Positions 385 to 11,264 of a stretch of DNA of 11,616 nt are shown here, one piece after another. The notes under the pieces are model-generated. The model saw only the letters and a program-made list of their open reading frames with translations, made no database searches and had not been told where the DNA came from. The position numbers and the translations under genes are program-made. Numbering within the stretch: position 1 is the stretch's first letter; each line of letters opens with the position of its first letter. The stretch is from an uncultured archaeon (lineage in GTDB: Archaea; Asgardarchaeota; Heimdallarchaeia; Heimdallarchaeales; Heimdallarchaeaceae): the NCBI GenBank assembly GCA_964549075.1, contig CAZJUB010000061.1:4458-16073 (forward strand). Reading direction: 5' to 3'.

Positions 385-1743
385 TTACTTAAACGGCCAT
401 TTCTCTAGTAACTTTAAGTTATCTTCTAATTTCGCTTCTTGAAGAATTTCAATTACTCTACTCTCTTTTAGTCTCATAGGCATCCTATCAACTTTACTAA
501 ATGAATCGATAAATGTAAAAGCAAACGCTGTAGATATCTTAGCATCTAGTTTACTTATTTTATCAAAGGTGTCAGCTGATGTGTGACCATATCCTCTCCC
601 TACTGTTGGATCTGGTTTTTCTCCAAATATACAGACATTCGGGATTCCCTTCAAGAAAAACGGATAATTATCGCTTGCTGTAATGATACTTTTAGAGATT
701 CTGGATTCATACAATAATTCATTCTGTAGTTCTTTTATTATAACATACAATTCTTCAATTCCACTGCAAGGAATGTGTTTAGGAGTGTAGCCAATTAATC
801 CATCAAGATTGATCATAGCAACAACATCAGAGATATCAATGTTGTCCACATAAATAGTCGAACCCACTACACCAAATTCTTCAACACCAAAAGCAATAAA
901 CCTTAAAGTTCTCTCTGGAGTATAATTGAATTCTTTCATCAATTTAGTTATCTCGAGCATTGCAGCAACAGATGCAGCATTATCAGTCGCACCTTGTGCT
1001 ATATCATGACCATCATAATGTCCCCCTATGACAATAACCTCATCTTTTCGTCTTCCTAGTATTTCCCAAATTATGTGTTTAGAAGTCAACTTTGGAGTAT
1101 CGTTGGAAACTTTAATTTTACATGTAATTGCATCATCGTCTTTCAGAAGCTCTTTAATGTGTTCATAAGATTCTTTGGAAATACCTATTGCTATTATCTC
1201 ACCTATTCTGTTTGATCTAACAGATCCCGTTGGAAAAAGTTGTCCTGGATTGTGGTTTGCAAAAATAAAAGCTTTAGCTCCAAATTCGTACGCATTTGCA
1301 TATTTAATGCGTCTATGTAACCATCCTTCTTCAGTGTCTCCTGAATGTATCATAACAGCTTTTCCAGGAATAGTGCTTCTTAATCTATTTAGTTCAGTCT
1401 CAGAACCACCCACACCATCTATTATATTCATCTCTAGAGTTTCATTATTAGTTGATGGTGCTAAAACAAGTGAAATAGCTGGAAAATTGTATTCCTTCTT
1501 TTTAGTTTTTATTTTAAAATCACAGTCTCCCCTTATCCAACCTTGATATTCAAATTCAAATTTTTCTACTTCTATATTAATTTCATCTAAATACTTTTGA
1601 ATATATTCTTGAGCAAGTTTCTCACTTTCAGTACCTGCAAATCTGCTACCCATTAGGCATAAATCTTTAATTGTTTCATAAATCGAATCTCTAGCAAGAA
1701 GTCTCCCAATGATTTTTTCCTTTAAATCTCCGATTTCATACAT
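385..1743 (-). CDS. M28 family zinc aminopeptidase with protease-associated (PA) domain
   Basis: Metal-ligand motifs GGHYDG, GATDNAASVAAMLE, FGVEEFGVVGS, MINLDG, SDNYPF and GHTSADT. PA insert 'PGKAVMI...KYANAYEFGAKAFIF'. No obvious signal peptide. Confidence 0.9.
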   Translation of the reverse strand: MYEIGDLKEKIIGRLLARDSIYETIKDLCLMGSRFAGTESEKLAQEYIQKYLDEINIEVEKFEFEYQGWIRGDCDFKIKTKKKEYNFPAISLVLAPSTNNETLEMNIIDGVGGSETELNRLRSTIPGKAVMIHSGDTEEGWLHRRIKYANAYEFGAKAFIFANHNPGQLFPTGSVRSNRIGEIIAIGISKESYEHIKELLKDDDAITCKIKVSNDTPKLTSKHIIWEILGRRKDEVIVIGGHYDGHDIAQGATDNAASVAAMLEITKLMKEFNYTPERTLRFIAFGVEEFGVVGSTIYVDNIDISDVVAMINLDGLIGYTPKHIPCSGIEELYVIIKELQNELLYESRISKSIITASDNYPFFLKGIPNVCIFGEKPDPTVGRGYGHTSADTFDKISKLDAKISTAFAFTFIDSFSKVDRMPMRLKESRVIEILQEAKLEDNLKLLEKWPFK

Positions 1744-1773
1744 AACAATGAATTATCTTTAGAATTTTTAAAA

Positions 1774-2037
1774 CTAACTCCCTAACGTTAAAAAGAAATC
1801 CATTTGTTCCCTAATAAATCCTTCATCCGCACTTCCAATTATTCTTTGATTATTTGGAAGGACAATTGTTGGAATAGCGACTATCTCATACTCTCCAGCT
1901 TTTGTAATATCTTTAGTTACGTCAATAACTTCGAGTTCTAAATGATCCACTCCTTTTATAATCTGTCTTAAAATACTTTCTAAATATGGACACCAGCTGC
2001 ATGTTGGGCTTGTAAAGAATAATATTTTAAGACTCAT
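1774..2037 (-). CDS. Small thioredoxin-fold protein with CxxC (CSWC); KaiB-like C-terminal segment
   Basis: 'FFTSPTCSWCP' active site, cis-Pro motif 'IVAIPTIV' and 'IIG'. SD-like AGGTGAT 6 nt upstream of the ATG. Confidence 0.88.
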   Translation of the reverse strand: MSLKILFFTSPTCSWCPYLESILRQIIKGVDHLELEVIDVTKDITKAGEYEIVAIPTIVLPNNQRIIGSADEGFIREQMDFFLTLGS

Positions 2038-2043
2038 TAGATC

Positions 2044-2050
2044 ATCACCT
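2044..2050 (-). promoter_or_regulatory. Shine-Dalgarno (AGGTGAT) for the thioredoxin gene, overlapping the stop codon of the KaiC-like gene
   Basis: The + strand ATCACCT at 2044-2050 reads AGGTGAT on the - strand. Spacer to the ATG at 2037 is 6 nt. Confidence 0.7.
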
Positions 2051-3455
2051 AATCAACTATCTCAATTAATGGCATTTTATCTTTATATCTTACAACTTTT
2101 GGTAGAAAAGTTGCTCCTGCCGAGCTTTTCATACATTCAATGTAAGTTGTATAATCTTCTCTTGAAAAGCGGATGATTATGTCTGCAGTTGTTCGTAATC
2201 TTGCTAACATTTCTCTGCTAATTGCATTAAAATTAATGAAAGAATAACCAATTGATCTTTTCTCTTTTATATTGAAAGACTGTAAAGCAAAATATCTGAG
2301 AAATTCTGATTCATTTAGTATGTTTGCATCATCAGTCAAATCCCCATATATAACAACTTTTTGTTTCGATTTCTGGAACGCTTCCATCAATTCAACAGTA
2401 ACAGAAATCATATCATCAGTAGTCATCAACTGACTCATCTCTCTAGCTTCTACTGCAGTAACTGATCGATTGTATTTGTCAATAAAAACAATGTTTCCTT
2501 TATTCAAGAACGGTTCTATGTTAAAATCAGCTTTATTAAAATCTTCAACTATTCTAGATGAATACATATGAACATTAGAGTGAATAATAACTCCTTTATC
2601 ATTTTCGAGATGATAACAGAGGGTAGTTAAAAATAAGGGGAAGTAATTAGTTTCTCCATCTACTTCTACCAAAACTACACTACCAGAAGGAATACCTCCA
2701 CCAAGTAATTTATCAAGTTTTTCTATACCCGAGGATTCTTCTTTGATGTGTGATGTCGGAGGTTGTTCAGATCTAAGAATTGAAATACCATCTCTATTAA
2801 TGATAAATCTATTTTCGAAGTTTATTGGTTTAGCTGAGCGAAGTTTAGGAATTGAAATTCGTTTAATTATTTGATTATTTTTGAGTTCAGTCCGAATCTT
2901 GATCACTCCATCAACTAGAAATTCTTCTATTGTGGAGTACTCTTCAGTTGGTTGAGACTCAGCTGTTAAAACAAGCACAGCATCTTCATTTGTAATTTCC
3001 CTAATGAAATCCATGAAATTACTTCTTGCAGTTTTTTCATATTTGAAATCAGCAAAAAAAGCTGAGATTGAATCAAAGATAACCATTTTTGCTTTGATAG
3101 ATTCCATTTTGTCCTTTGTTCGTGCAATAATCGCAGACAAGTTGAATTGATCAGTTTGAACTAAATTTGTTCCTAAAGGTTTTAAGGACATTTTTTCAAA
3201 GTGTAATAATCCTTTATTGACATAAGATTCTAAATCCATGTTAAAGGATTGACCGTAAGTCATCAATTTTTCAATGTCAACTTCCGTTGAGATAAAGAGA
3301 ACTGGAATATTTGCTTTCAAGGCTCCAACTGTCATGAAAAGAGATAGAACTGTTTTCCCTGAACCTGCAGATCCTTTAATTGCATAGCAGAAGCTTGTTC
3401 TCAAACCTCCGTCTATCATTTTATCAAGTTCTTCTATGCCAGTAGAAATAATCAT
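2049..3455 (-). CDS. KaiC-like / RAD55-family RecA-superfamily ATPase with two domains; N-domain intact, C-domain degenerate
   Basis: N-domain: STGIEELDKMIDGG, Walker A GSAGSGKT, FISTE, Walker B VIFDSIS, EEFLVDGVI and KLR (Arg finger). C-domain begins SSGIEKLDKLLGGGIPSGSVVLV, but Walker A is replaced by EVDGETNY and KxR by KSS. Confidence 0.88.
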   Translation of the reverse strand: MIISTGIEELDKMIDGGLRTSFCYAIKGSAGSGKTVLSLFMTVGALKANIPVLFISTEVDIEKLMTYGQSFNMDLESYVNKGLLHFEKMSLKPLGTNLVQTDQFNLSAIIARTKDKMESIKAKMVIFDSISAFFADFKYEKTARSNFMDFIREITNEDAVLVLTAESQPTEEYSTIEEFLVDGVIKIRTELKNNQIIKRISIPKLRSAKPINFENRFIINRDGISILRSEQPPTSHIKEESSGIEKLDKLLGGGIPSGSVVLVEVDGETNYFPLFLTTLCYHLENDKGVIIHSNVHMYSSRIVEDFNKADFNIEPFLNKGNIVFIDKYNRSVTAVEAREMSQLMTTDDMISVTVELMEAFQKSKQKVVIYGDLTDDANILNESEFLRYFALQSFNIKEKRSIGYSFINFNAISREMLARLRTTADIIIRFSREDYTTYIECMKSSAGATFLPKVVRYKDKMPLIEIVD

Positions 3456-3574: not shown

Positions 3575-4126
3575 ATGGCTCCTGAATTTCAAGCTCAGAC
3601 AGTAGGAACACGAATTATCGTGTGGGACATCGATCAAGGTATGGAACTCTATTCAAGTGGTTTTTATGGGAAACCAATAGGTGTTAGAAAACCTCAACTA
3701 GGCGATGAATTTAGAGACCCATCAGAGATTTCCCCTTTTGAGGCAATGTATCTGTTAGATCAAAAGAAAATTAATATTGTCGACGAGCAAAATAAGAGTT
3801 TAACTAAAACAAAATTCAGGGAAAGATGTTCAACAAATTTCCAAAATTTTGATAGCAAGATGCAAGTATACAAATATTTGCGGGATTTGGGGTATGTTGT
3901 TCGACCAGGTTTGAAATTTGGTGTGGATTTTGCTGTTTACACAAAAGGTCCAGGTTTAGAACATAGTCCATATATGATTCAGATAATTGAAAAAAATGGC
4001 AAAATTGATCCAATAGAATTGGTAAGAGCGGGGAGATTAGCAACCACTGTTAGAAAGAATTTTGTTATCGCTACAACAATCAAAAATAAATTACACTTCT
4101 TTACTTTTGGCAGATTCAAACCATGA
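3575..4126 (+). CDS. endA: tRNA-intron (splicing) endonuclease, single-unit catalytic subunit
   Basis: 'SPFEAMYL', 'VYKYLRDLGYVVRPGLKFGVDFAVY', 'GPGLEHS' and 'GRLATTVRK' supply the Tyr-His-Lys catalytic triad. The 183-aa size is typical of the alpha4 type. Confidence 0.95.
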   Translation: MAPEFQAQTVGTRIIVWDIDQGMELYSSGFYGKPIGVRKPQLGDEFRDPSEISPFEAMYLLDQKKINIVDEQNKSLTKTKFRERCSTNFQNFDSKMQVYKYLRDLGYVVRPGLKFGVDFAVYTKGPGLEHSPYMIQIIEKNGKIDPIELVRAGRLATTVRKNFVIATTIKNKLHFFTFGRFKP

Positions 4127-4273
4127 TGTTCAAACTAATTCTACGTAAACTTAATATGATTGCATGACAAAACCTTTTCATAAGATATTATTTATAACAT
4201 TCAACTTACTTGTTCTTTACTAGTTTTCCTACCATAAAAGATTAAAGGAGTTATTAATATCCGTTAAATAATC

Positions 4274-5461
4274 ATGAGTTCCTCAACTGATTGGCAAGTA
4301 GATGTATTAGAATATGCCCAGAAATGTATCTATTGTGGATATTGTTCACTCTGCCCAACTTACAAAGAACTTAAGTGGGAAATTTATCATCCTAGAGGAA
4401 TTCTTGAACAAATAAAATTGTATTTTGATGAAGGGACCAAAGAAAAAACAAAACTTGAAGCTTCTAAAACGTTATTTGATGCAATATTTGCTTGTACTAT
4501 GTGTAAAGCTTGTGAGAACATCTGTTTAGTTGACATCCCCTTATTAAAAATCTGGGAACAAGTTCGACAAGAATCGTTCAAAAAAGGTCGATGGAATCCC
4601 TTAATGCTTTCTTTGTATAATAAAGTAAGAGATACACATAATATTTTTGGGCTTCCTCCTGACGAAAGGTTGACTTGGGCAAAATTAAAAGGTCTGGTCA
4701 TGACCCGCAGAGTCAAGAAGAAAGCTCCTTTAGCTTATTTTATAGGTTGTCAAGCATCTTACTCTGGTAAAATGAGTGAAATAGCTCCCAGTGTAGTAAC
4801 AATTTTAAGAAAAACTAAAACTAATTTCACTATCCTTGGAAATGATGAGTGGTGTTGTGCATCTCCTATATTTTTAGCTGGTGGTTATTCAGTCGGAAAA
4901 AATTTCGCAAAACACAATTTGGAAGAATTGAAAAAATTAGGTGTAAAGAGATTAGTTACAGCTTGTTCAGGTTGTTATCGTACCTTTAAAATAGTCTATC
5001 CCAGAGTTTTAGGCGATAGTTGGGATATAGAAGTTCTGCATATCTCTGAATTAGCAAATGAACTAATTAAGGAAGGAAAAATTAAATTTAAAAAGCAATT
5101 TAAAGAGAAAATAACTTTCAAAGATCCTTGTGAATTAGTGAGGCATTGTGGTTTAATAGAAGCTCCACGTGAAGTAATAAATAGCATATCTAATGTAAGA
5201 TTTGAAGAATTACCGTCCAACAAAGAAGAAGCACTTTGCTGTGGTGGAGGGGGATTATTAAAGCTTAATAATTCTGAATTAGTCGATAATGTTAACACAA
5301 AATTGATGGCAGAAATAAAGTATTCAGAAGCAAACATTGTCGTTAATGGGTGTCCTACTTGCTTAGATACAATCCAATCAGGAGTAAGAAAAGAAGACTT
5401 AGATATTGAAGTTATAGATATCTCTGAATTGATTCTAAGAGCTATGGGTGAAAAGAAATGA
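4274..5461 (+). CDS. Fe-S oxidoreductase with ferredoxin-type clusters and two CCG domains (GlpC/GlcF/HdrD-like)
   Basis: CIYCGYCSLCP and CTMCKACENIC cluster motifs. CCG-domain motifs FIGCQAS...WCCASP...ACSGC and KDPCEL...LCCGGGG...GCPTC. Confidence 0.9.
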   Translation: MSSSTDWQVDVLEYAQKCIYCGYCSLCPTYKELKWEIYHPRGILEQIKLYFDEGTKEKTKLEASKTLFDAIFACTMCKACENICLVDIPLLKIWEQVRQESFKKGRWNPLMLSLYNKVRDTHNIFGLPPDERLTWAKLKGLVMTRRVKKKAPLAYFIGCQASYSGKMSEIAPSVVTILRKTKTNFTILGNDEWCCASPIFLAGGYSVGKNFAKHNLEELKKLGVKRLVTACSGCYRTFKIVYPRVLGDSWDIEVLHISELANELIKEGKIKFKKQFKEKITFKDPCELVRHCGLIEAPREVINSISNVRFEELPSNKEEALCCGGGGLLKLNNSELVDNVNTKLMAEIKYSEANIVVNGCPTCLDTIQSGVRKEDLDIEVIDISELILRAMGEKK

Positions 5462-6870
5462 CACTAAAGAAAAAAGCAAGATCAAGATTTGTTAGATTCA
5501 TTGGTAAAAAACTTCGCGAGGATACACCAACTCTTCAGGTTTATTCCAGAGATATGGCCGATCTTCCTTCACTTGTAAGTATATTCTTCAAGAACAAACC
5601 TGATGGTGTCATTTTAGTTAATACAGTAGAGGATATCCAGACAATCTATGCTATTGCCAACGAAACTAAAACTCCCATAACTCAAAGAGGAGCTGGAACT
5701 GCGGGATTAGGCGGAAGTATTACTTATAACGGTGGTTTAGTTATCGATACTAAGGGTATCGAACAGAAATTTTTCTTTGATCCATTGGAGCAAACAGTAA
5801 CAGTTAATCCTTCTTATGTGTTCTCAGATTTACAACGAGAGTTAAAATTACAAGGTCTTTCATTATGCGCTTATCCATCGAGTTATCATTCAGCTACAAT
5901 TGGTGGTTGGATTGCTCATGGCGGTCATGGAATTGGAAGTGCACAGTACGGAGGAGCTTTAGATCAAATTGTGGAATTAGAGGTCGTGTTACCAACAGGT
6001 CACCTTGTAAAATATACAGAAAAAGATCATATCTCACTTTTTGTAGGATCTCATGGAACACTTGGAACTATAACTGAAGTAACTTTGAAAGTGAAGTTTG
6101 ATATCCCACTGAAACATCAAGGATGTACTTTTGATTCTCCTGAAGAACTCGTAAGAGGTCTTAAAGATCTTAGTTTAACATTCCCATATTCAGTTTGGTT
6201 TCTAAATCCAAAACATGTAGCTTTATTTAATGAGACCTTCGGATACAATTTGCCCAATAGATATGTAGCGATAATCTCAAAGGAAGTTAGTTTTGAAGAG
6301 GAAGAACAAGAATTTAATAGAATCTTTAATAATGCTATAAGGAACTCAGGTGGTCAAATCCTTGATCGAAGATACACCGAAGATATCTGGAAATTCCGAT
6401 TTAGATCTCTTTCAATGCTAAAACATTGCAGTGATTATGTTGTATCAGAAGTTATACTGCCAATTGAGAATAGTGATAAATATTTACGCAAATTAATCAC
6501 TAAATTCAAAGGGAATATTCATCTGGAAGGTGAGTTTATCTCTCCTACTCATTATGCTTTACTTATGTACATACTTTCGGATGAGAAAATGTCTCCTCTT
6601 AAGAAAACACTACTGAATTTAAAATTATACAATGTTTCTCTAAAGAGTAAAAAAGTCAAAGGACATCCTTATTCGACAGGATTGTGGTTTGCAGGTTACT
6701 ACAGTCAGATATACGGAAAAGATGAATTTCGAAGATATAAGGAATTTAAGAAAAGTGTAGATCCTAAGAATATTAGTAATCCAGGAAAAGTATTATCTCC
6801 CAAAATAAGATTTTTCCCAGTAGTAAGTCTAAAATTCGCAGTGAAATTAGCAAGTAGGTTGATGTTATGA
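5458..6870 (+). CDS. FAD-binding oxidoreductase, VAO/PCMH superfamily (GlcD / D-lactate dehydrogenase-like)
   Basis: PITQRGAGTAGLGGS, YPSS...ATIGGWIA..G.G....YG, LFVGSHGTLGTITEVTLK and C-terminal DPKNISNPGK. ATGA overlap with the upstream gene. Confidence 0.9.
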   Translation: MTLKKKARSRFVRFIGKKLREDTPTLQVYSRDMADLPSLVSIFFKNKPDGVILVNTVEDIQTIYAIANETKTPITQRGAGTAGLGGSITYNGGLVIDTKGIEQKFFFDPLEQTVTVNPSYVFSDLQRELKLQGLSLCAYPSSYHSATIGGWIAHGGHGIGSAQYGGALDQIVELEVVLPTGHLVKYTEKDHISLFVGSHGTLGTITEVTLKVKFDIPLKHQGCTFDSPEELVRGLKDLSLTFPYSVWFLNPKHVALFNETFGYNLPNRYVAIISKEVSFEEEEQEFNRIFNNAIRNSGGQILDRRYTEDIWKFRFRSLSMLKHCSDYVVSEVILPIENSDKYLRKLITKFKGNIHLEGEFISPTHYALLMYILSDEKMSPLKKTLLNLKLYNVSLKSKKVKGHPYSTGLWFAGYYSQIYGKDEFRRYKEFKKSVDPKNISNPGKVLSPKIRFFPVVSLKFAVKLASRLML

Positions 6871-7304
6871 AAATTAAAGAATATGAGTTTCCAGATAATT
6901 TGTTATATGTAACAGGAGAACCAGGTCACTTTTGGGTGGAACAGATTTCTGAAAAGAGAATCAAATTAGGAATAGATCATTATGCTTCTTCAAGAGCAGG
7001 TACAATAGAATATGTTATGACAATGAAGATTGATAAAAGCATAAAGAAAAATGAAACAATAGGCACAATTGAAAGCGGGAAATGGGTGGGACAACTCAAA
7101 TCACCTATTGATGGAAAAATTGTTGAGAAAAACGAGAATTTACGTAAAAATCCAAGTCTTATTAATAAAGATCCTTATGGTGAAGGCTGGATTTTAATTT
7201 TAGAAGGAAATGATTTGGAAACTCAATTTGAGGAGAATGAGTTAATAGTACCTGCTGGGGAAAAACTTGAGGAATATATATTGTGGAGAATTAATCAAGA
7301 GTAA
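6867..7304 (+). CDS. Lipoyl carrier protein, glycine cleavage H-protein family (GcvH/LbpA-like)
   Basis: HFWV...IKLGIDHYA...G, lipoyl-Lys motif GTIESGKWVGQLKSP (K72) and NPSLINKDPYGEGWI. ATGA overlap with the upstream gene. Confidence 0.9.
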   Translation: MKIKEYEFPDNLLYVTGEPGHFWVEQISEKRIKLGIDHYASSRAGTIEYVMTMKIDKSIKKNETIGTIESGKWVGQLKSPIDGKIVEKNENLRKNPSLINKDPYGEGWILILEGNDLETQFEENELIVPAGEKLEEYILWRINQE

Positions 7305-8254: not shown

Positions 8255-8263
8255 AAGTAAATC

Positions 8264-8288
8264 TAGAAAAAGAATATTTTTTTCTCTC
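8264..8288 (+). terminator. Putative T-rich terminator after uppP
   Basis: An A-tract, then a T-run and CT-rich tail, about 10-35 nt after the TGA stop. Confidence 0.4.
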
Positions 8289-8289
8289 T

Positions 8290-8306
8290 AAAAGAATTTT
8301 TATATA
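8290..8306 (+). promoter_or_regulatory. Putative BRE/TATA element (AAAAGAA...TTTATATA) for the GTPase operon
   Basis: A purine-rich tract followed by TTTATATA, about 130 nt upstream of the ATG at 8439. The downstream gene carries an SD, consistent with a leadered mRNA. Confidence 0.4.
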
Positions 8307-8428
8307 ATCAGATAGGAAATAACATTAAAAATCATGTAATTAAATTACAGTTAGCGAAAACATTAAATTAACCATAGTGATTATAGAATTGTTTAGACTT
8401 ACCGTACTCCAGCTCAATTAGGTAAAAA

Positions 8429-8434
8429 AGGTGA
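8429..8434 (+). promoter_or_regulatory. Shine-Dalgarno AGGTGA for GTPase gene 1
   Basis: AGGTGA ends 4 nt before the ATG at 8439. Confidence 0.6.
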
Positions 8435-8438
8435 ATGA

Positions 8439-9449
8439 ATGTCTTTCTATGAGTTTCGAAAACGTATTCTAGAAGAAAAACAAAAGCGTGAACAGCAACA
8501 AGTTAAACCAGTTGGAACAGATGCATCAAGACAAGAAACCGTTATTGGGAGAAACAAGTTTAGTGTAGCATTACTAGGTCTAGAAAGAGCTGGAAAAACT
8601 TCTTTAGTTAAAAAATTATTAAAACAAGAAGATATTGTAGTGCGACCAACTTATGGGGTTAACCTCGAAAATTATCAATATCGAGATTTGAACTTCACAT
8701 GTTTTGATTTGGGAGGTCACCAACCTTTCCGTCTTAGTTTATGGAAAAAGTTTATTGAAAGAGCAGATGGAGTGATGTATCTTGTAGATTCTGCAGATCA
8801 TGCTAGATTTGAAGAATCTAGACAAACTTTTTGGCACTATATTAATTTTGCAAAACAAAATAGCCCTGTACTGTTTTTAGCAAATAAAAGTGATTTGCCA
8901 AATTCTAAAGAACTATCTGAGATAAATGAAAAATTTGAATTAGATAAATTTCTGAGAAATCTTCGACCATTCAACATCAAAAAATGTTCAGCTCTAACAG
9001 GTCAGGGAGTATACGAAGCTTGGGATTGGATGGTAGATGTTCTTTGTGGTGCTCAACAATGGAAAGTAAAAATAGGTGCTGCAGTTTTAGCTGATGTTGA
9101 AGGTAATATCCTCTCTGAAGCTATTTTTGGTAGACCTAGTGATCAAGCTATTATTGCTAATGACTTCAAGAAATTAAAAGAGTTAACTCGTTTATTCGCC
9201 ATTGAGTCAAAGGAGAGTATTCAGTCTGTTAAACTTGAAAGTCTCTTTAAAAAGCATGTAAGTCATGTTAAACGCGGTGCATATTGTTTGTCAGTTATGA
9301 TTGATCCTATAGATCCAGTTACAAGAGCACAACAAATTCAATTGAGAATACTTGAAAACTTCAGTCGTAATCCTATTGACGTTCAGAAAAACTTAGGTGA
9401 AGTTTTCGAAAGCAAGTTCCCATTAGAAGTAGAAGGAGGACGTAGATAA
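8439..9449 (+). CDS. Arf/Sar1-related small GTPase fused to a C-terminal longin/roadblock-like domain
   Basis: G1 GLERAGKT (47-54), G2 PTYG (T71), G3 FDLGGH (89-94), G4 NKSD, G5 CSAL, and Arf-type 'LW..F...ADGVMYLVDSAD..RF' and 'W(D)WM'. The C-terminal ~125 aa 'IGAAVLADVEGNIL...' shows a beta-beta-alpha-beta-beta-beta-alpha pattern. Confidence 0.88.
   Translation: MSFYEFRKRILEEKQKREQQQVKPVGTDASRQETVIGRNKFSVALLGLERAGKTSLVKKLLKQEDIVVRPTYGVNLENYQYRDLNFTCFDLGGHQPFRLSLWKKFIERADGVMYLVDSADHARFEESRQTFWHYINFAKQNSPVLFLANKSDLPNSKELSEINEKFELDKFLRNLRPFNIKKCSALTGQGVYEAWDWMVDVLCGAQQWKVKIGAAVLADVEGNILSEAIFGRPSDQAIIANDFKKLKELTRLFAIESKESIQSVKLESLFKKHVSHVKRGAYCLSVMIDPIDPVTRAQQIQLRILENFSRNPIDVQKNLGEVFESKFPLEVEGGRR
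9433..9440 (+). promoter_or_regulatory. Shine-Dalgarno AAGGAGGA for GTPase gene 2, embedded in the 3' end of gene 1
   Basis: Ends 9 nt before the TTG at 9450. Confidence 0.6.
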
Positions 9450-10445
9450 TTGAGTGGTTACTTATCCTTCATCCGTGATAAACTTATTTCTTCTCAAGAA
9501 CAGAAGATACCTCAATGTGCTATCTTGGGATTAGAAGGATCAGGCAAATCCAGTGTAGTGAGTCGTCTGTTATATGGAACTGTCTCAGAAGATCAACCGT
9601 TACAACAAACATGCTATATTAATGTAACATACGGAAAATCAACTATAACAGTTCTTGAAGCAGATGAAGAAACTTCTCGTGAAAGTCCTTATTTCCAGGA
9701 TATTCTTGGAAAGATTGATGGTATCGTTTTTGTGATTGACACACAATCGATGAGGCACGTTGAAGCTTCTTTCGAATATATCTTCAGTTTGTTTGATAAA
9801 ATTCCTCAAAAAACCTCAATTTTATTTTTAGCAAACAAAACTGATCTTCAGGATAGTGTACCATTTCCTGATTTACTTCAGGATCCAGCTTTTCAAGTTA
9901 TTATGGATGATATCAATAGATCTGTGTCCATTTATCCAGTAAGTATCAAAACTGGAGAAAACTTTTACACAGCTTTTGATTGGATAATATCAAGAATGAC
10001 TGGTAGAACTCCTTTGAGAGAAGAAGTTACACCTAAAAGAGTAATTATTCTTCAAGAAGGTGGAGTTCCAGCTTTTGACCATATTTTTGATACTTCTATA
10101 GAAGAACATGATAGCACACTTCTAGGAGGGCTGATAAGCGCTTTGAACATTATGGCTTCTACAATTTTCGAATCTGAATCTGTGATGGATGTAGTGAAAC
10201 TAGGTGGAGTCAAAATGGTTATAAGAAAAATGGGAGGGTGGAGTATTGTACTATTTGTTGATCGAGACGATAGTGAATCGAAAGCTCAATCTCTCGCAGA
10301 AGAGATTCTTAATGCATTTCAGGAAGAAAAAGAAAGAGATCCATCCAAGGATCTTCCCAAACAGATTAAATATGAATTTCTAACCAAGATACCTGAAATT
10401 GCTATACTTTTAGATCAACAACCAGATAGAAAAGATGAGTATTAA
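9450..10445 (+). CDS. Arf-related GTPase paralog with degenerate switch motifs (probable pseudo-GTPase) fused to a longin-like domain
   Basis: G1 GLEGSGKS, G4 NKTD, G5 VSIKTG and 'FDWI' are retained. G2 PT is replaced by PL and G3 DxxG by EADEE. C-terminal 'VIILQEGGVPAF...DSTLLGGLISALNIMA...VKLGGVKMVI...SIVLFVD...LAEEILNAF' is longin-like. TTG start with SD. Confidence 0.82.
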   Translation: MSGYLSFIRDKLISSQEQKIPQCAILGLEGSGKSSVVSRLLYGTVSEDQPLQQTCYINVTYGKSTITVLEADEETSRESPYFQDILGKIDGIVFVIDTQSMRHVEASFEYIFSLFDKIPQKTSILFLANKTDLQDSVPFPDLLQDPAFQVIMDDINRSVSIYPVSIKTGENFYTAFDWIISRMTGRTPLREEVTPKRVIILQEGGVPAFDHIFDTSIEEHDSTLLGGLISALNIMASTIFESESVMDVVKLGGVKMVIRKMGGWSIVLFVDRDDSESKAQSLAEEILNAFQEEKERDPSKDLPKQIKYEFLTKIPEIAILLDQQPDRKDEY

Positions 10446-10449
10446 GGAG
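10444..10449 (+). promoter_or_regulatory. Shine-Dalgarno AAGGAG for gene 3 of the operon
   Basis: Overlaps the TAA of gene 2 and ends 10 nt before the ATG at 10460. Confidence 0.55.
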
Positions 10450-10459
10450 AAAACAGCAA

Positions 10460-11230
10460 ATGATAAACCCAAATGTAACAAAAGAACCATCGCTGGTATT
10501 CAGTATTTTCAAGGATTTTGGACCCGATATCCTCTTCAATAATTCGACTTTAGATGAGAATACTGCACTAACTTTAGTTATGAGTGGAATGACAATTGTA
10601 GAGATGGATAAAACTTCAATAGGAAGGTTAGATGGTTCAAAAAATCCAAAAATGCTTGGACCTATTCCTGTTCCAGAGCATGAGCAATTGAAAGCAATAG
10701 CTATTCCTTTTGAGACTGAAATCACTTCATCAACTGATGAAAGAATAGTAGCAGCTGGTCACCGCTTATGTGTTGCTTATTTCCTTTTTGAGGGCATAGC
10801 AGTAAGAGATGTTTTGGATAGTTATGGTTTAATTGAACCATACTTTACTATGATTGGTAGAGGATTACAGAAAGAATCTGATATCAATCCAACTACTATC
10901 AAACAATTATATACAAGAATGGTAGATATGTTCTCTGGAAAGATTCCGAGAATTTTTGCTATAAATCCAGATAATTCTCTAAAAGAGATGATAGGTAAGA
11001 GACTTGAGTATGCTGACACTTACCTGCTTTGCGATTTAAACAAGAATGTTATGTATATCCTCTTATATAATCCTTCAATGGATGTATGGCGAAGAAGAGA
11101 TATCTATAAAGTAGCATCTGAATTAAATTCTAATATGTTTAGAAGCTCTATGAGAATAAAAACTATTGAAGATGTAAAAGAGATGGTCAGAATATTAGAG
11201 ATTCTAAATATTGAAATAGCTCCAGTCTAA
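10460..11230 (+). CDS. Hypothetical protein: putative uDENN/longin domain (aa ~10-135) plus gelsolin-like domain (aa ~163-251)
   Basis: The ORF itself is solid (SD, operon context, 256 aa). Domain calls are from motif resemblance only: 'LVFSIFKDFGPDIL' and 'DERIVAAGHRLCVAYF' for uDENN/longin; 'PRIF...L...DTYLLCD....MYI....R...A.EL...IKTIED..E...LEIL' for a gelsolin repeat. Confidence 0.6.
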   Translation: MINPNVTKEPSLVFSIFKDFGPDILFNNSTLDENTALTLVMSGMTIVEMDKTSIGRLDGSKNPKMLGPIPVPEHEQLKAIAIPFETEITSSTDERIVAAGHRLCVAYFLFEGIAVRDVLDSYGLIEPYFTMIGRGLQKESDINPTTIKQLYTRMVDMFSGKIPRIFAINPDNSLKEMIGKRLEYADTYLLCDLNKNVMYILLYNPSMDVWRRRDIYKVASELNSNMFRSSMRIKTIEDVKEMVRILEILNIEIAPV

Positions 11231-11234
11231 ACAA

Positions 11235-11264
11235 TTTTTTAACATACGAGAGATCTCTCTCTCG
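11235..11264. terminator. T6 tract plus 7-bp hairpin between convergent genes (putative terminator)
   Basis: TTTTTT at 11235-11240. CGAGAGA-TCTC-TCTCTCG stem-loop at 11247-11264, between the stops at 11230 and 11275. Confidence 0.5.

Follow-up and report, generated by a model that had tools for sequence, protein, structure and literature searches.

A conserved three-gene module of Heimdallarchaeia encoding an Arf/Sar-like GTPase, a pseudo-GTPase paralogue and a longin-gelsolin protein

The window analysed here is an 11,616-nucleotide (nt) stretch of DNA from an uncultured Asgard archaeon of the family Heimdallarchaeaceae (GenBank assembly GCA_964549075.1, contig CAZJUB010000061.1, positions 4,458 to 16,073). 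It carries three consecutive genes encoding an Arf/Sar-like GTPase with a C-terminal domain (gene 1, protein P0001), a paralogous pseudo-GTPase with the same two-domain layout (gene 2, P0002) and a protein that joins a longin domain to a gelsolin-like domain (gene 3, P0003); coordinates are collected in Table 1. Two families of the class Heimdallarchaeia retain the trio with gene order and strand unchanged. We tentatively favour, at a little short of an even chance, a reading in which the first two proteins form a Rag-style GTPase/pseudo-GTPase pair and the third acts as their GTPase-activating protein (GAP)-like regulator, possibly tied to actin. Read in this way, the trio resembles, in compact archaeal form, the membrane-traffic switches of eukaryotes, together with a candidate off-switch.

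All three are real genes under purifying selection, because changes at the third codon position dominate when they are compared with orthologous loci. Relative to the orthologous locus L050, differences at codon positions 1, 2 and 3 number 30, 11 and 136 in gene 1, 27, 13 and 141 in gene 2, and 28, 5 and 106 in gene 3. The genes are also tightly packed. The TAA of gene 1 directly abuts the TTG of gene 2 (0 nt), with GGAGG lying 9-13 nt 5' of that start codon, and 14 nt separate gene 2 from gene 3, which is preceded by AGGAG; among gene 2 orthologues the start codon is TTG, GTG or ATG. An earlier reading made from the letters of the window without database searches (hereafter the sequence-only reading) had described three co-oriented genes linked by Shine-Dalgarno motifs, and the open reading frames (ORFs), strands, gaps and Shine-Dalgarno-like motifs are all as it claimed.

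Gene 1 belongs to the Arf family. Its best Pfam match is Arf (PF00025; E = 1.3e-39, 135.9 bits against a cut-off of 22.3, residues 38-200), with SRPRB second at 38.7 bits, and its top matches among PDB sequences are Arf1 (3e-31), Arf6 and Arl proteins, the Asgard ArfR structure 8oul following at 1e-28. The P-loop GxxxxGKT, the switch-I Thr71, D90-x-G-G-H94, N149-K-x-D152 and S184-A185 are invariant in all 20 gene 1 orthologues aligned. A His after the DxxG motif is the state of Sar1 and SR-beta, whereas Arf and Arl proteins have Gln; the invariant H94 thus agrees with the Sar1/SR-beta state and not with Arf proper. Judged by these motifs, gene 1 is predicted to be a catalytically equipped Arf-family GTPase in which His replaces the Arf Gln, as in Sar1. 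At its N-terminus lies a helix that carries an S-F-aromatic/Leu ... R-x-I/L pattern conserved in both families and has a hydrophobic moment of up to 0.47; in the AlphaFold2 model a disordered linker (residues 21-36) separates it from the G domain. This is possibly an Arf-like amphipathic, membrane-binding helix.

The G domain of gene 2 is homologous to that of gene 1 (hhalign, 99.9%) and still matches Pfam Arf (2.2e-15, 57 bits). All of its orthologues share the P-loop residues G27..G32-K33 and also N129-K130, and at least 90% have D132. What is missing from 19 of 19, by contrast with gene 1, is DxxG together with the catalytic residue; LEADEE stands there in the window's own family (f1, Heimdallarchaeaceae), and IDLGQD in f7, a second family of the class. 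The sequence-only reading had assigned Arf-family G domains to genes 1 and 2, one intact and one degenerate, and these data bear out both assignments. They also indicate that gene 2 is an ancient paralogue of gene 1 in which the loss of DxxG and switch II is old and conserved. Because the P-loop and NKxD are kept, its protein would be expected to bind nucleotide without hydrolysing it. In place of switch II, at positions 9660-9700 (residues ~70-84), stands an acidic run, LEADEETxRESPYFQDIL. This segment is strongly conserved in the family and therefore suggests a new interaction surface, not decay. We also considered whether gene 2 might be a dead pseudogene and rejected this, given its open frame, the predominance of third-position changes and the presence of orthologues in two families.

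The organism's own genome contains 40 matches to the Arf Pfam model; besides genes 1 and 2, nine of these lie in open frames of 287-330 amino acids (aa). One region of this genome (L051, contig C15, 27500-40500) harbours genes for five GTPases of the Arf family, each 299-320 aa long and extended at the C-terminus. Their motifs are intact, four having DLGGH or DMGGH and one DIGGQ, and because all five keep these motifs gene 2 is the odd one out. The five are interleaved with genes for a multi-PAS/DUF835 protein of 988 aa, a PAS protein of 443 aa and a protein with a receiver domain, which suggests that this type of GTPase is wired to two-component-type sensing.

The sequence-only reading had also proposed a longin/roadblock-like domain in each of the three proteins. 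For gene 3 a fold search supports this directly, as described below; for genes 1 and 2 the assignment rests on the topology of the gene 1 model and on homology only. The C-terminal domain of gene 1 was modelled at a predicted local distance difference test score (pLDDT) of ~80-92, and the order of its elements is that of the fold-searched gene 3 longin; together with the preceding helix it also fits a Rag-type roadblock. The corresponding domain of gene 2 is related to it, as a BLAST alignment extends to residue 328 and hhalign aligns 99 columns (69.5%, E = 4e-5). Genes 1 and 2 therefore appear to share a homologous C-terminal domain of ~125 aa with a longin-type order of elements, which on the model is longin/roadblock-like. 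Searches of these domains against Pfam (E up to 10) and of their profiles against PDB sequences gave nothing usable, hhalign detected no relation between them and the gene 3 longin, and in the ESM Atlas residues 205-336 of gene 1 gave scores of 0.81 or less, with Robl_LC7 and Gtr1_RagA as weak leads only. The fold search used the whole gene 1 model, so that G-domain matches filled its list; LokiRagM (9m28_A) was the only chain to align across both domains (219 residues, root-mean-square deviation (rmsd) 12.4).

Of 37 homologues of gene 3, which are 61-99% identical, 32 have exactly 256 aa. Taken as a single sequence, gene 3 matched nothing in Pfam, NCBIfam or PDB sequences and had no usable match in the ESM Atlas. 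Across the 43 family members (P0003 and 42 relatives) there was no Pfam match to the Folliculin or NPR2 families, and Pfam searches with the 42 relatives returned stray sub-threshold matches, except for the Rag-like part of one protein, P0083. An AlphaFold2 model built from a 24-sequence alignment (pLDDT 82.5, predicted template-modelling score 0.70) comprises two domains. In the fold search the first domain scored 11.9 against a Lokiarchaeal longin (8yqg_B; 143 residues aligned, rmsd 3.4), 11.1-11.4 against the Lst4 longin, 10.2-11.0 against Folliculin-complex chains, 9.9 against C9orf72-SMCR8 (7o2w_A), 9.2 against a chain in the FLCN range (6ulg_N) and 8.7-9.3 against NPRL2, while the longins of Sedlin, AP, TRAPP and Mon1-Ccz1 reached at most 8.2. 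With the gene 3 model as query, the top Foldseek match was a GATOR1 chain (E = 2.4e-4). The second domain falls below the Pfam Gelsolin threshold, the four Gelsolin matches of this genome being other genes, but a profile of 24 divergent gene 3 relatives matches Thor ProGel across the whole gelsolin domain (E = 8.7e-4). The third protein is thus longin-gelsolin, as the sequence-only reading had it; on the model, its longin belongs structurally with the FLCN/FNIP-NPRL2-C9orf72/SMCR8 class, and a gelsolin domain resembling ProGel is attached to it.

Conservation within the family is concentrated in the longin domain. Among the 24 divergent relatives, which are 20-41% identical to gene 3 except for two close ones at 92% and 64%, G21, P22, G67, P68 and D93 never vary, and P70, R95, G100 and N223 are each found in 90% or more; N223 is the only near-invariant residue of the gelsolin domain. 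The G21-P22 pair is present in 24 of 24 close members, in 24 of 24 divergent members and in 10 of 11 members of mixed architecture, P0083 having GT. R95 occurs in 23 of the 24 divergent members, and both D93 and R95 are invariant in the 11 of mixed architecture. Excerpts of PMC12290439 describe a GP motif at the start of strand beta2 in FLCN, NPRL2, SMCR8 and C9orf72, report it absent from FNIP2, NPRL3 and non-GAP longins, and note it, together with an arginine finger, in some longins of Heimdallarchaeia; the Asgard longins of that paper number 15. G21-P22 lies at exactly this site. The GP-to-Arg spacing is 73 residues in gene 3 and 78 in SMCR8 (G68-P69, R147), and R95 is a candidate counterpart of the catalytic Arg of these proteins (FLCN R164, NPRL2 R78, SMCR8 R147). 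Strand topology suggests that the turn between beta1 and beta2, the first residues of beta3 and the loop joining beta4 to beta5 lie along one edge of the sheet, in which case the GP, GPxP and DxR elements should cluster on that edge of the modelled gene 3 longin.

These features bear on what kind of regulator gene 3 might be. Longin/roadblock regulators are mostly guanine-nucleotide exchange factors (GEFs) according to excerpts of PMC10933270 and PMC12290439, and gene 3 could accordingly be a GEF or scaffold of the longin-platform type (Mon1-Ccz1, TRAPP, DENN, Ragulator) that loads or positions the gene 1 GTPase. We regard this as quite unlikely, since fold matches to such platforms rank below the chains of longin-GAP complexes, the GP motif is reported to be absent from non-GAP longins (PMC12290439, in part) and a conserved loop Arg is the usual mark of a GAP.

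Five relatives of gene 3 (P0057, P0068, P0071, P0076 and P0079; ~330-375 aa) represent a sister architecture, in which a longin with GP and DxR is followed by a helical C-terminal part, without gelsolin; one of its members is named from Candidatus Hodarchaeota.

We examined the distribution of the gene 3 family by a profile search of 400 Asgard genomes, many of them close kin and not independent. A match was found in 75 of them, including 30/30 genomes of f1, 12/12 of f7, 21/22 of f5, 3/3 of f3, 2/2 of f6 and 2/12 of f4. Outside the class there were matches in only 4 genomes, and the largest other family had none (0/135). A profile search of the full database gave 61 cluster representatives, whose named members are all 'hypothetical' or 'uncharacterized', except for P0083; homologues carry names from Candidatus Heimdallarchaeaceae.

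A synteny search of the kind proposed with the sequence-only reading showed that the gene order is kept. All three genes, co-oriented and in the order of the window, occur together at 26 of 30 f1 loci, the other four being cut by contig or locus ends, and at 10 of 12 f7 loci, the other two being cut by contig ends; none of these six incomplete loci has a different neighbour. The trio is also present in the closed genomes of Candidatus Heimdallarchaeum endolithica and Candidatus Heimdallarchaeum aukensis. Between f7 and the window protein identity is 41% for gene 1, 28% for gene 2 and 42% for gene 3, and the f7 spacers measure 93-149 nt (e.g. 126 and 98), compared with 0 and 14 in the window. 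P0001 scores 230 bits against gene 1 of f7 and at most 112 against eight paralogues from its own genome, and P0002 scores 132 bits against its f7 counterpart and at most 79 against own-genome paralogues. Because each gene is closest to its positional counterpart, the trio, including the pseudo-GTPase, predates the split between f1 and f7.

Association of gene 3 with GTPases recurs outside these two families. In another Asgard class, at locus L046, the gene 3 homologue stands between a Ras-family GTPase gene on the opposite strand and, 285 nt downstream, the gene of a 319-aa Gtr1/RagA-type GTPase. P0083, a protein of 597 aa named 'ADP-ribosylation factor-like protein [Promethearchaeota archaeon]' by NCBI, carries in one chain a longin, a gelsolin-like part, a Rag-like G domain at residues 286-473 and, at its C-terminus, a tail; this may be either a genuine Rosetta-stone fusion or a merge made in gene calling. 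Such recurrence bears on the possibility that the three genes are co-expressed without forming a joint machine, genes 1 and 2 then belonging to a large set of Arf-longin GTPases in signalling, and gene 3 being an unrelated neighbour retained through operon inertia. The abundance of Arf-family matches in this genome, nine further ones in frames of similar length, would fit such a view, as would the five GTPases placed elsewhere with PAS sensors and a response regulator and the frequent location of gene 3 relatives away from GTPase genes. Nevertheless we judge it very unlikely, as order and strand are kept across two families at 28-42% identity even though the gaps shift from 0/14 to 126/98 nt, and as adjacency (L046) and fusion (P0083) recur independently.

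Several other neighbourhoods of gene 3 relatives were observed. In L031, the f7 locus searched with Pfam, a 175-aa Ras-family GTPase gene (5911-6438, forward strand; Ras 4.9e-33) follows gene 3 on the same strand after 138 nt. In f5 (L042-L044) the homologues are flanked on one side by an Fe-ADH_2 gene, of the glycerol-1-phosphate dehydrogenase-like kind, and on the other by an ORF of ~130 aa without annotation, which is followed by a GCD14-type tRNA methyltransferase gene. This ORF abuts the stop of the gene 3 homologue, with a 1-base overlap in L042 (4882-5619 and 5619-6035) and gaps of 14-16 nt in L043 and L044, and might encode a partner subunit. In f3 (L037 and L038) the homologues are near CheR methyltransferase and methyl-accepting chemotaxis protein (MCP)-signalling genes.

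In the mechanism that we favour, proteins 1 and 2 would heterodimerise Rag-style through their C-terminal domains, giving one switching subunit and one locked or scaffolding subunit. The edge of the gene 3 longin sheet bearing G21-P22, G67-P68 and D93-x-R95 would dock against the gene 1 G domain, where gene 3 would speed GTP hydrolysis with Arg95 as an arginine finger, in the manner of FLCN, NPRL2 and SMCR8 acting on Rag and Arf GTPases. The gelsolin domain would place this off-switch on actin or provide a second contact with the GTPase; actin (448 bits), an actin-related protein (191 bits) and a pair of 2-domain gelsolins are among the products of the organism's own genome. The proposal in the sequence-only reading that gene 3 is a longin-type regulator is in part supported, by the fold matches, the GP and D93-x-R95 elements, the two-family synteny, and the P0083 fusion and L046.

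The gelsolin domain also admits a reading in which gene 3 lies downstream of the switch. As an effector or adaptor, it would be recruited by the GTP-bound gene 1/gene 2 dimer, and its gelsolin domain would cap, sever, bundle or sequester Asgard actin, making the module an actin regulator under GTPase control. The domain is homologous to Thor ProGel, which has been crystallised on actin (7c2f), regulation of actin in vitro by Asgard gelsolins is reported in excerpts of PMC7444086, an actin gene is present in the genome, and longin/roadblock platforms commonly bind GTPases non-catalytically (excerpts of PMC10933270). Set against this, the most conserved residues of the family (G21, P22, G67, P68, D93 and R95) lie in the longin domain, the relatives P0057, P0068 and P0079 have a helical C-terminal part and no gelsolin, and binding of ProGel to rabbit actin is weak, at a dissociation constant of 337 uM (PMC7444086, in part). 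We therefore consider an effector role possible, if on balance unlikely.

The His in switch II raises the further possibility that gene 3 works as Sec23 does, its gelsolin domain giving a catalytic arginine to the Sar1-like site of gene 1 while the longin only docks. R211 and R213 of this domain are invariant in f1 and f7. An Arg near position 213 is nevertheless missing from about 5 of the 24 divergent relatives (alignment judged by eye), true gelsolins outmatch Sec23, and gene 3 has none of the Sec23 trunk, zinc-finger, barrel and helical domains, which makes this explanation most improbable in our view. A bolder reading, which we hold to be doubtful, would make gene 3 the native GAP for an Asgard GTPase of the Arf family with Sar1-like character, joining an arginine-finger longin to a Sec23-type gelsolin device and tying the switch to actin. 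In eukaryotes the longin arginine finger (FLCN, GATOR1 and SMCR8, acting on Rag and Arf) and the gelsolin-type domain of Sec23 (acting on Sar1) are separate devices, and here, if the idea is true, they would share one 256-aa chain; the gelsolin-type domain that Sec23 uses on Sar1 is lacking in Asgard Sec23-like proteins. With a pseudo-GTPase of its own, the trio would in that case serve as a living model for a membrane-cytoskeleton switch from before eukaryotes, and parts of coat protein complex II (COPII) and of the lysosomal GAP complexes might derive from it.

A number of observations weigh against a Rag-style pair regulated by a GAP-like gene 3. Relatives of gene 3 occur without a GTPase neighbour at all second copies examined in f7 (3/3) and at 2/2 loci in f3, 2/2 in f33, 1/1 in f6 and 3/3 resolved loci in f5. 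P0083, known from one record, has GT where the others have GP and may be an artefact of gene calling. The fold ranks do not tell catalytic from non-catalytic longin subunits, and the fold of the gene 1 and gene 2 C-terminal domains rests on the topology of one model. Finally, eukaryotic longin GAPs are longin-longin heterodimers with DENN or other C-terminal domains, where gene 3 has a gelsolin domain and the operon has no second free longin gene.

Comparison with known systems places the trio among several of them. Excerpts of PMC10933270 report that Prometheoarchaeum MK-D1 has fusions of Rag-like GTPases to roadblock/longin domains, including one operon pair predicted to dimerise through its roadblocks like Gtr1-Gtr2. 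Genes 1 and 2 resemble these and the Rag/Gtr proteins in having, behind the G domain, a ~125-aa C-terminal domain that is putatively of the roadblock/longin superfamily, and in lying side by side as paralogues. They differ in that gene 1 scores 135.9 bits with Arf and 23.7 with Gtr1_RagA (gene 2, 20.7; cut-off 22), the Gtr1_RagA values of both being far below their Arf scores, and in the catalytic His, the conserved pseudo-GTPase partner and the third, regulator-like gene.

FLCN-FNIP2, GATOR1 (NPRL2-NPRL3) and C9orf72-SMCR8 provide the best eukaryotic fold matches of gene 3. A further likeness lies in the GP pair at the start of beta2, and gene 3 has a conserved Arg, a candidate finger, ~73 residues beyond it. 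The likeness to longin GAPs and to the GP-motif longins of Heimdallarchaeia (PMC12290439) extends to the genomic linkage of gene 3 with Arf- and Rag-type GTPases. Unlike the longin GAP complexes, gene 3 is a single free longin gene that lacks a DENN- or NPRL2-type C-terminal domain and has a gelsolin domain in its place. Excerpts of bioRxiv 10.1101/2020.10.19.343400 had earlier noted NPRL2-like and FLCN-like longins in Asgard genomes, and those of PMC11914678 mention two Asgard C9orf72-SMCR8 candidates without Arf-binding regions.

With Sar1-Sec23 of COPII the module shares the switch II His of gene 1 and a gelsolin-domain protein, gene 3; in Sec23 the gelsolin-like domain supplies a catalytic residue (PMC11914678, in part). 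Gene 3 departs from the five-domain architecture of Sec23/Sec24 (zinc finger, trunk, barrel, helical and gelsolin-like), having none of the other domains, a gelsolin domain nearer to true gelsolins and its conserved core in the longin. Its single gelsolin/cofilin-type domain, which matches Thor ProGel by both profile and fold, likens it to the Asgard ProGel, 1DGelX and 2DGel proteins (PMC7444086), but the preceding longin sets it outside these three described architectures, and the word 'longin' is absent from PMC7444086. The Asgard ArfR/AArf proteins (HodArfR1, 8oul; PMC11914678; bioRxiv 10.1101/2024.02.28.582541) share with gene 1 a short N-terminal helix with a hydrophobic face. The ArfRs studied consist of a single domain, are 160-220 aa long and carry Gln (mutants Q72L and Q87L), whereas in gene 1 the residue is His and both a linker of 20 residues and a C-terminal domain are present.

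Bacteria offer a further parallel. In MglA-MglB of Myxococcus, a small GTPase and a roadblock-fold GAP/GEF are encoded beside each other. The trio likewise combines, in one operon, a prokaryotic small GTPase and a candidate regulator of the roadblock/longin superfamily, but MglA-MglB has neither a pseudo-GTPase partner nor a gelsolin domain.

The sequence-only reading did not recognise this exact architecture as described, which is true of part of it. The GTPase-roadblock/longin half is a known Asgard theme, because fusions and an operon pair were reported from MK-D1 (PMC10933270, in part). For the longin-gelsolin protein, the trio and the conserved pseudo-GTPase partner, we found no description in the literature searched, the supplementary datasets of PMC12290439 and PMC11914678 lying outside that search. 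In MK-D1, according to excerpts of PMC10933270, GTPase genes are generally outside operons with roadblock or longin genes, and it is therefore hard to pair a GTPase with its GAP or GEF from genome layout. Excerpts of PMC11914678 state that the regulators of Asgard Arfs have not been identified, and those of PMC12290439 ask whether ArfR or Rag GTPases partner the GP-motif Asgard longins. The trio is a candidate for this regulator question. Occurring in two families, the module offers a concrete pairing of an intact Arf/Sar-like GTPase, a pseudo-GTPase and a GP-motif longin, all of them small and soluble. If the pairing is true, it would be the first native Arf-family GTPase-regulator system in archaea and would date the longin-GAP mechanism before eukaryotes.

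Table 1. Coordinates of the three genes, their domains and motifs, and related features. Positions are those of the window unless a locus or contig is named.
Feature	Position	Strand	Extent and basis
Gene 1 (P0001), Arf/Sar-like GTPase + C-terminal domain	8439..9449	+	ATG start, 336 aa
Gene 1 N-terminal helix	8445..8498	+	residues 3-20; AlphaFold2 model and f1/f7 orthologue alignment
Gene 1 G domain	8550..9047	+	residues 38-203
Gene 1 C-terminal domain	9054..9428	+	residues 206-330; AlphaFold2 model, beta-beta-alpha-beta-beta-beta-alpha-alpha
Gene 2 (P0002), paralogous pseudo-GTPase, two-domain layout as gene 1	9450..10445	+	TTG start, 331 aa
Gene 2 degenerate G domain	9498..10007	+	residues 17-186
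Gene 2 C-terminal domain	10017..10409	+	residues 190-320; homologous to gene 1 C-terminal domain
Gene 3 (P0003), longin-gelsolin protein	10460..11230	+	ATG start, 256 aa
Gene 3 longin domain	10481..10939	+	residues 8-160; fold search
Gene 3 GP motif, G21-P22	10520..10525	+	start of strand beta2 (strand 21-27) of the longin
Gene 3 D93-E-R95	10736..10744	+	beta4-beta5 loop of the longin; R95 candidate arginine finger
Gene 3 gelsolin-like domain	10940..11227	+	residues 161-256; fold search and profile match to Thor ProGel
Candidate archaeal promoter/leader	8255..8438	+	184-nt AT-rich spacer 5' of gene 1; read from sequence
Candidate terminator	11235..11264	+	T6 run 11235-11240 and 7-bp hairpin 11247-11264, 3' of gene 3 stop, between convergent genes
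L046, Ras-family GTPase	3749-4417	-	
L046, gene 3 homologue	4983-5765	+	
L046, Gtr1/RagA-type GTPase	6050-7009	+	
L051, GTPase ORF	1397-2359	-	
L051, GTPase ORF	3708-4607	-	
L051, GTPase ORF	8808-9746	+	
L051, GTPase ORF	9911-10831	+	
L051, GTPase ORF	10832-11791	+	
Own-genome actin/gelsolin set	C18 14983-16092; C10 26700-27932; C28 3897-4412; C81 7799-8317		

The operon had also been described as flanked by a candidate promoter and terminator. A T6 run and a hairpin lie 3' of the gene 3 stop, the region has 5 terminator-like sites where 1.3 are expected, and beyond the candidate terminator lies a convergent GNAT gene. The candidate promoter amounts to a spacer rich in A and T, in which TATA-like runs stand at 8299-8307 and 8380-8388 and GGTGA lies 5-9 nt before the gene 1 ATG. 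A sigma-70 scan gave 13 sites compared with 14.2 in shuffled sequences, that is, no excess, for a bacterial consensus unsuited to archaea. As to transcription, one RNA library (X18, a metatranscriptome) yielded only two 151-nt contigs, at 10748-11024, inside gene 3 and identical to the window, which is weak evidence.

The surrounding genes are archaeal housekeeping genes, among them those for a tRNA-splicing endonuclease, a KaiC-like ATPase, UppP and GcvH, and on this basis we rejected the idea of a defence system or mobile element. The stretch is also present in several salt-marsh metagenome runs that are not marked as its source, at shares of 0.67-0.87. Upstream on the same strand (4274-7304) are genes for a CCG/4Fe-4S protein, a flavin adenine dinucleotide (FAD)-linked oxidase and a GcvH-like protein, followed by UppP. 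The first three have overlapping stops and starts and form a glycolate-oxidase-like trio, apparently unrelated to the GTPase module.

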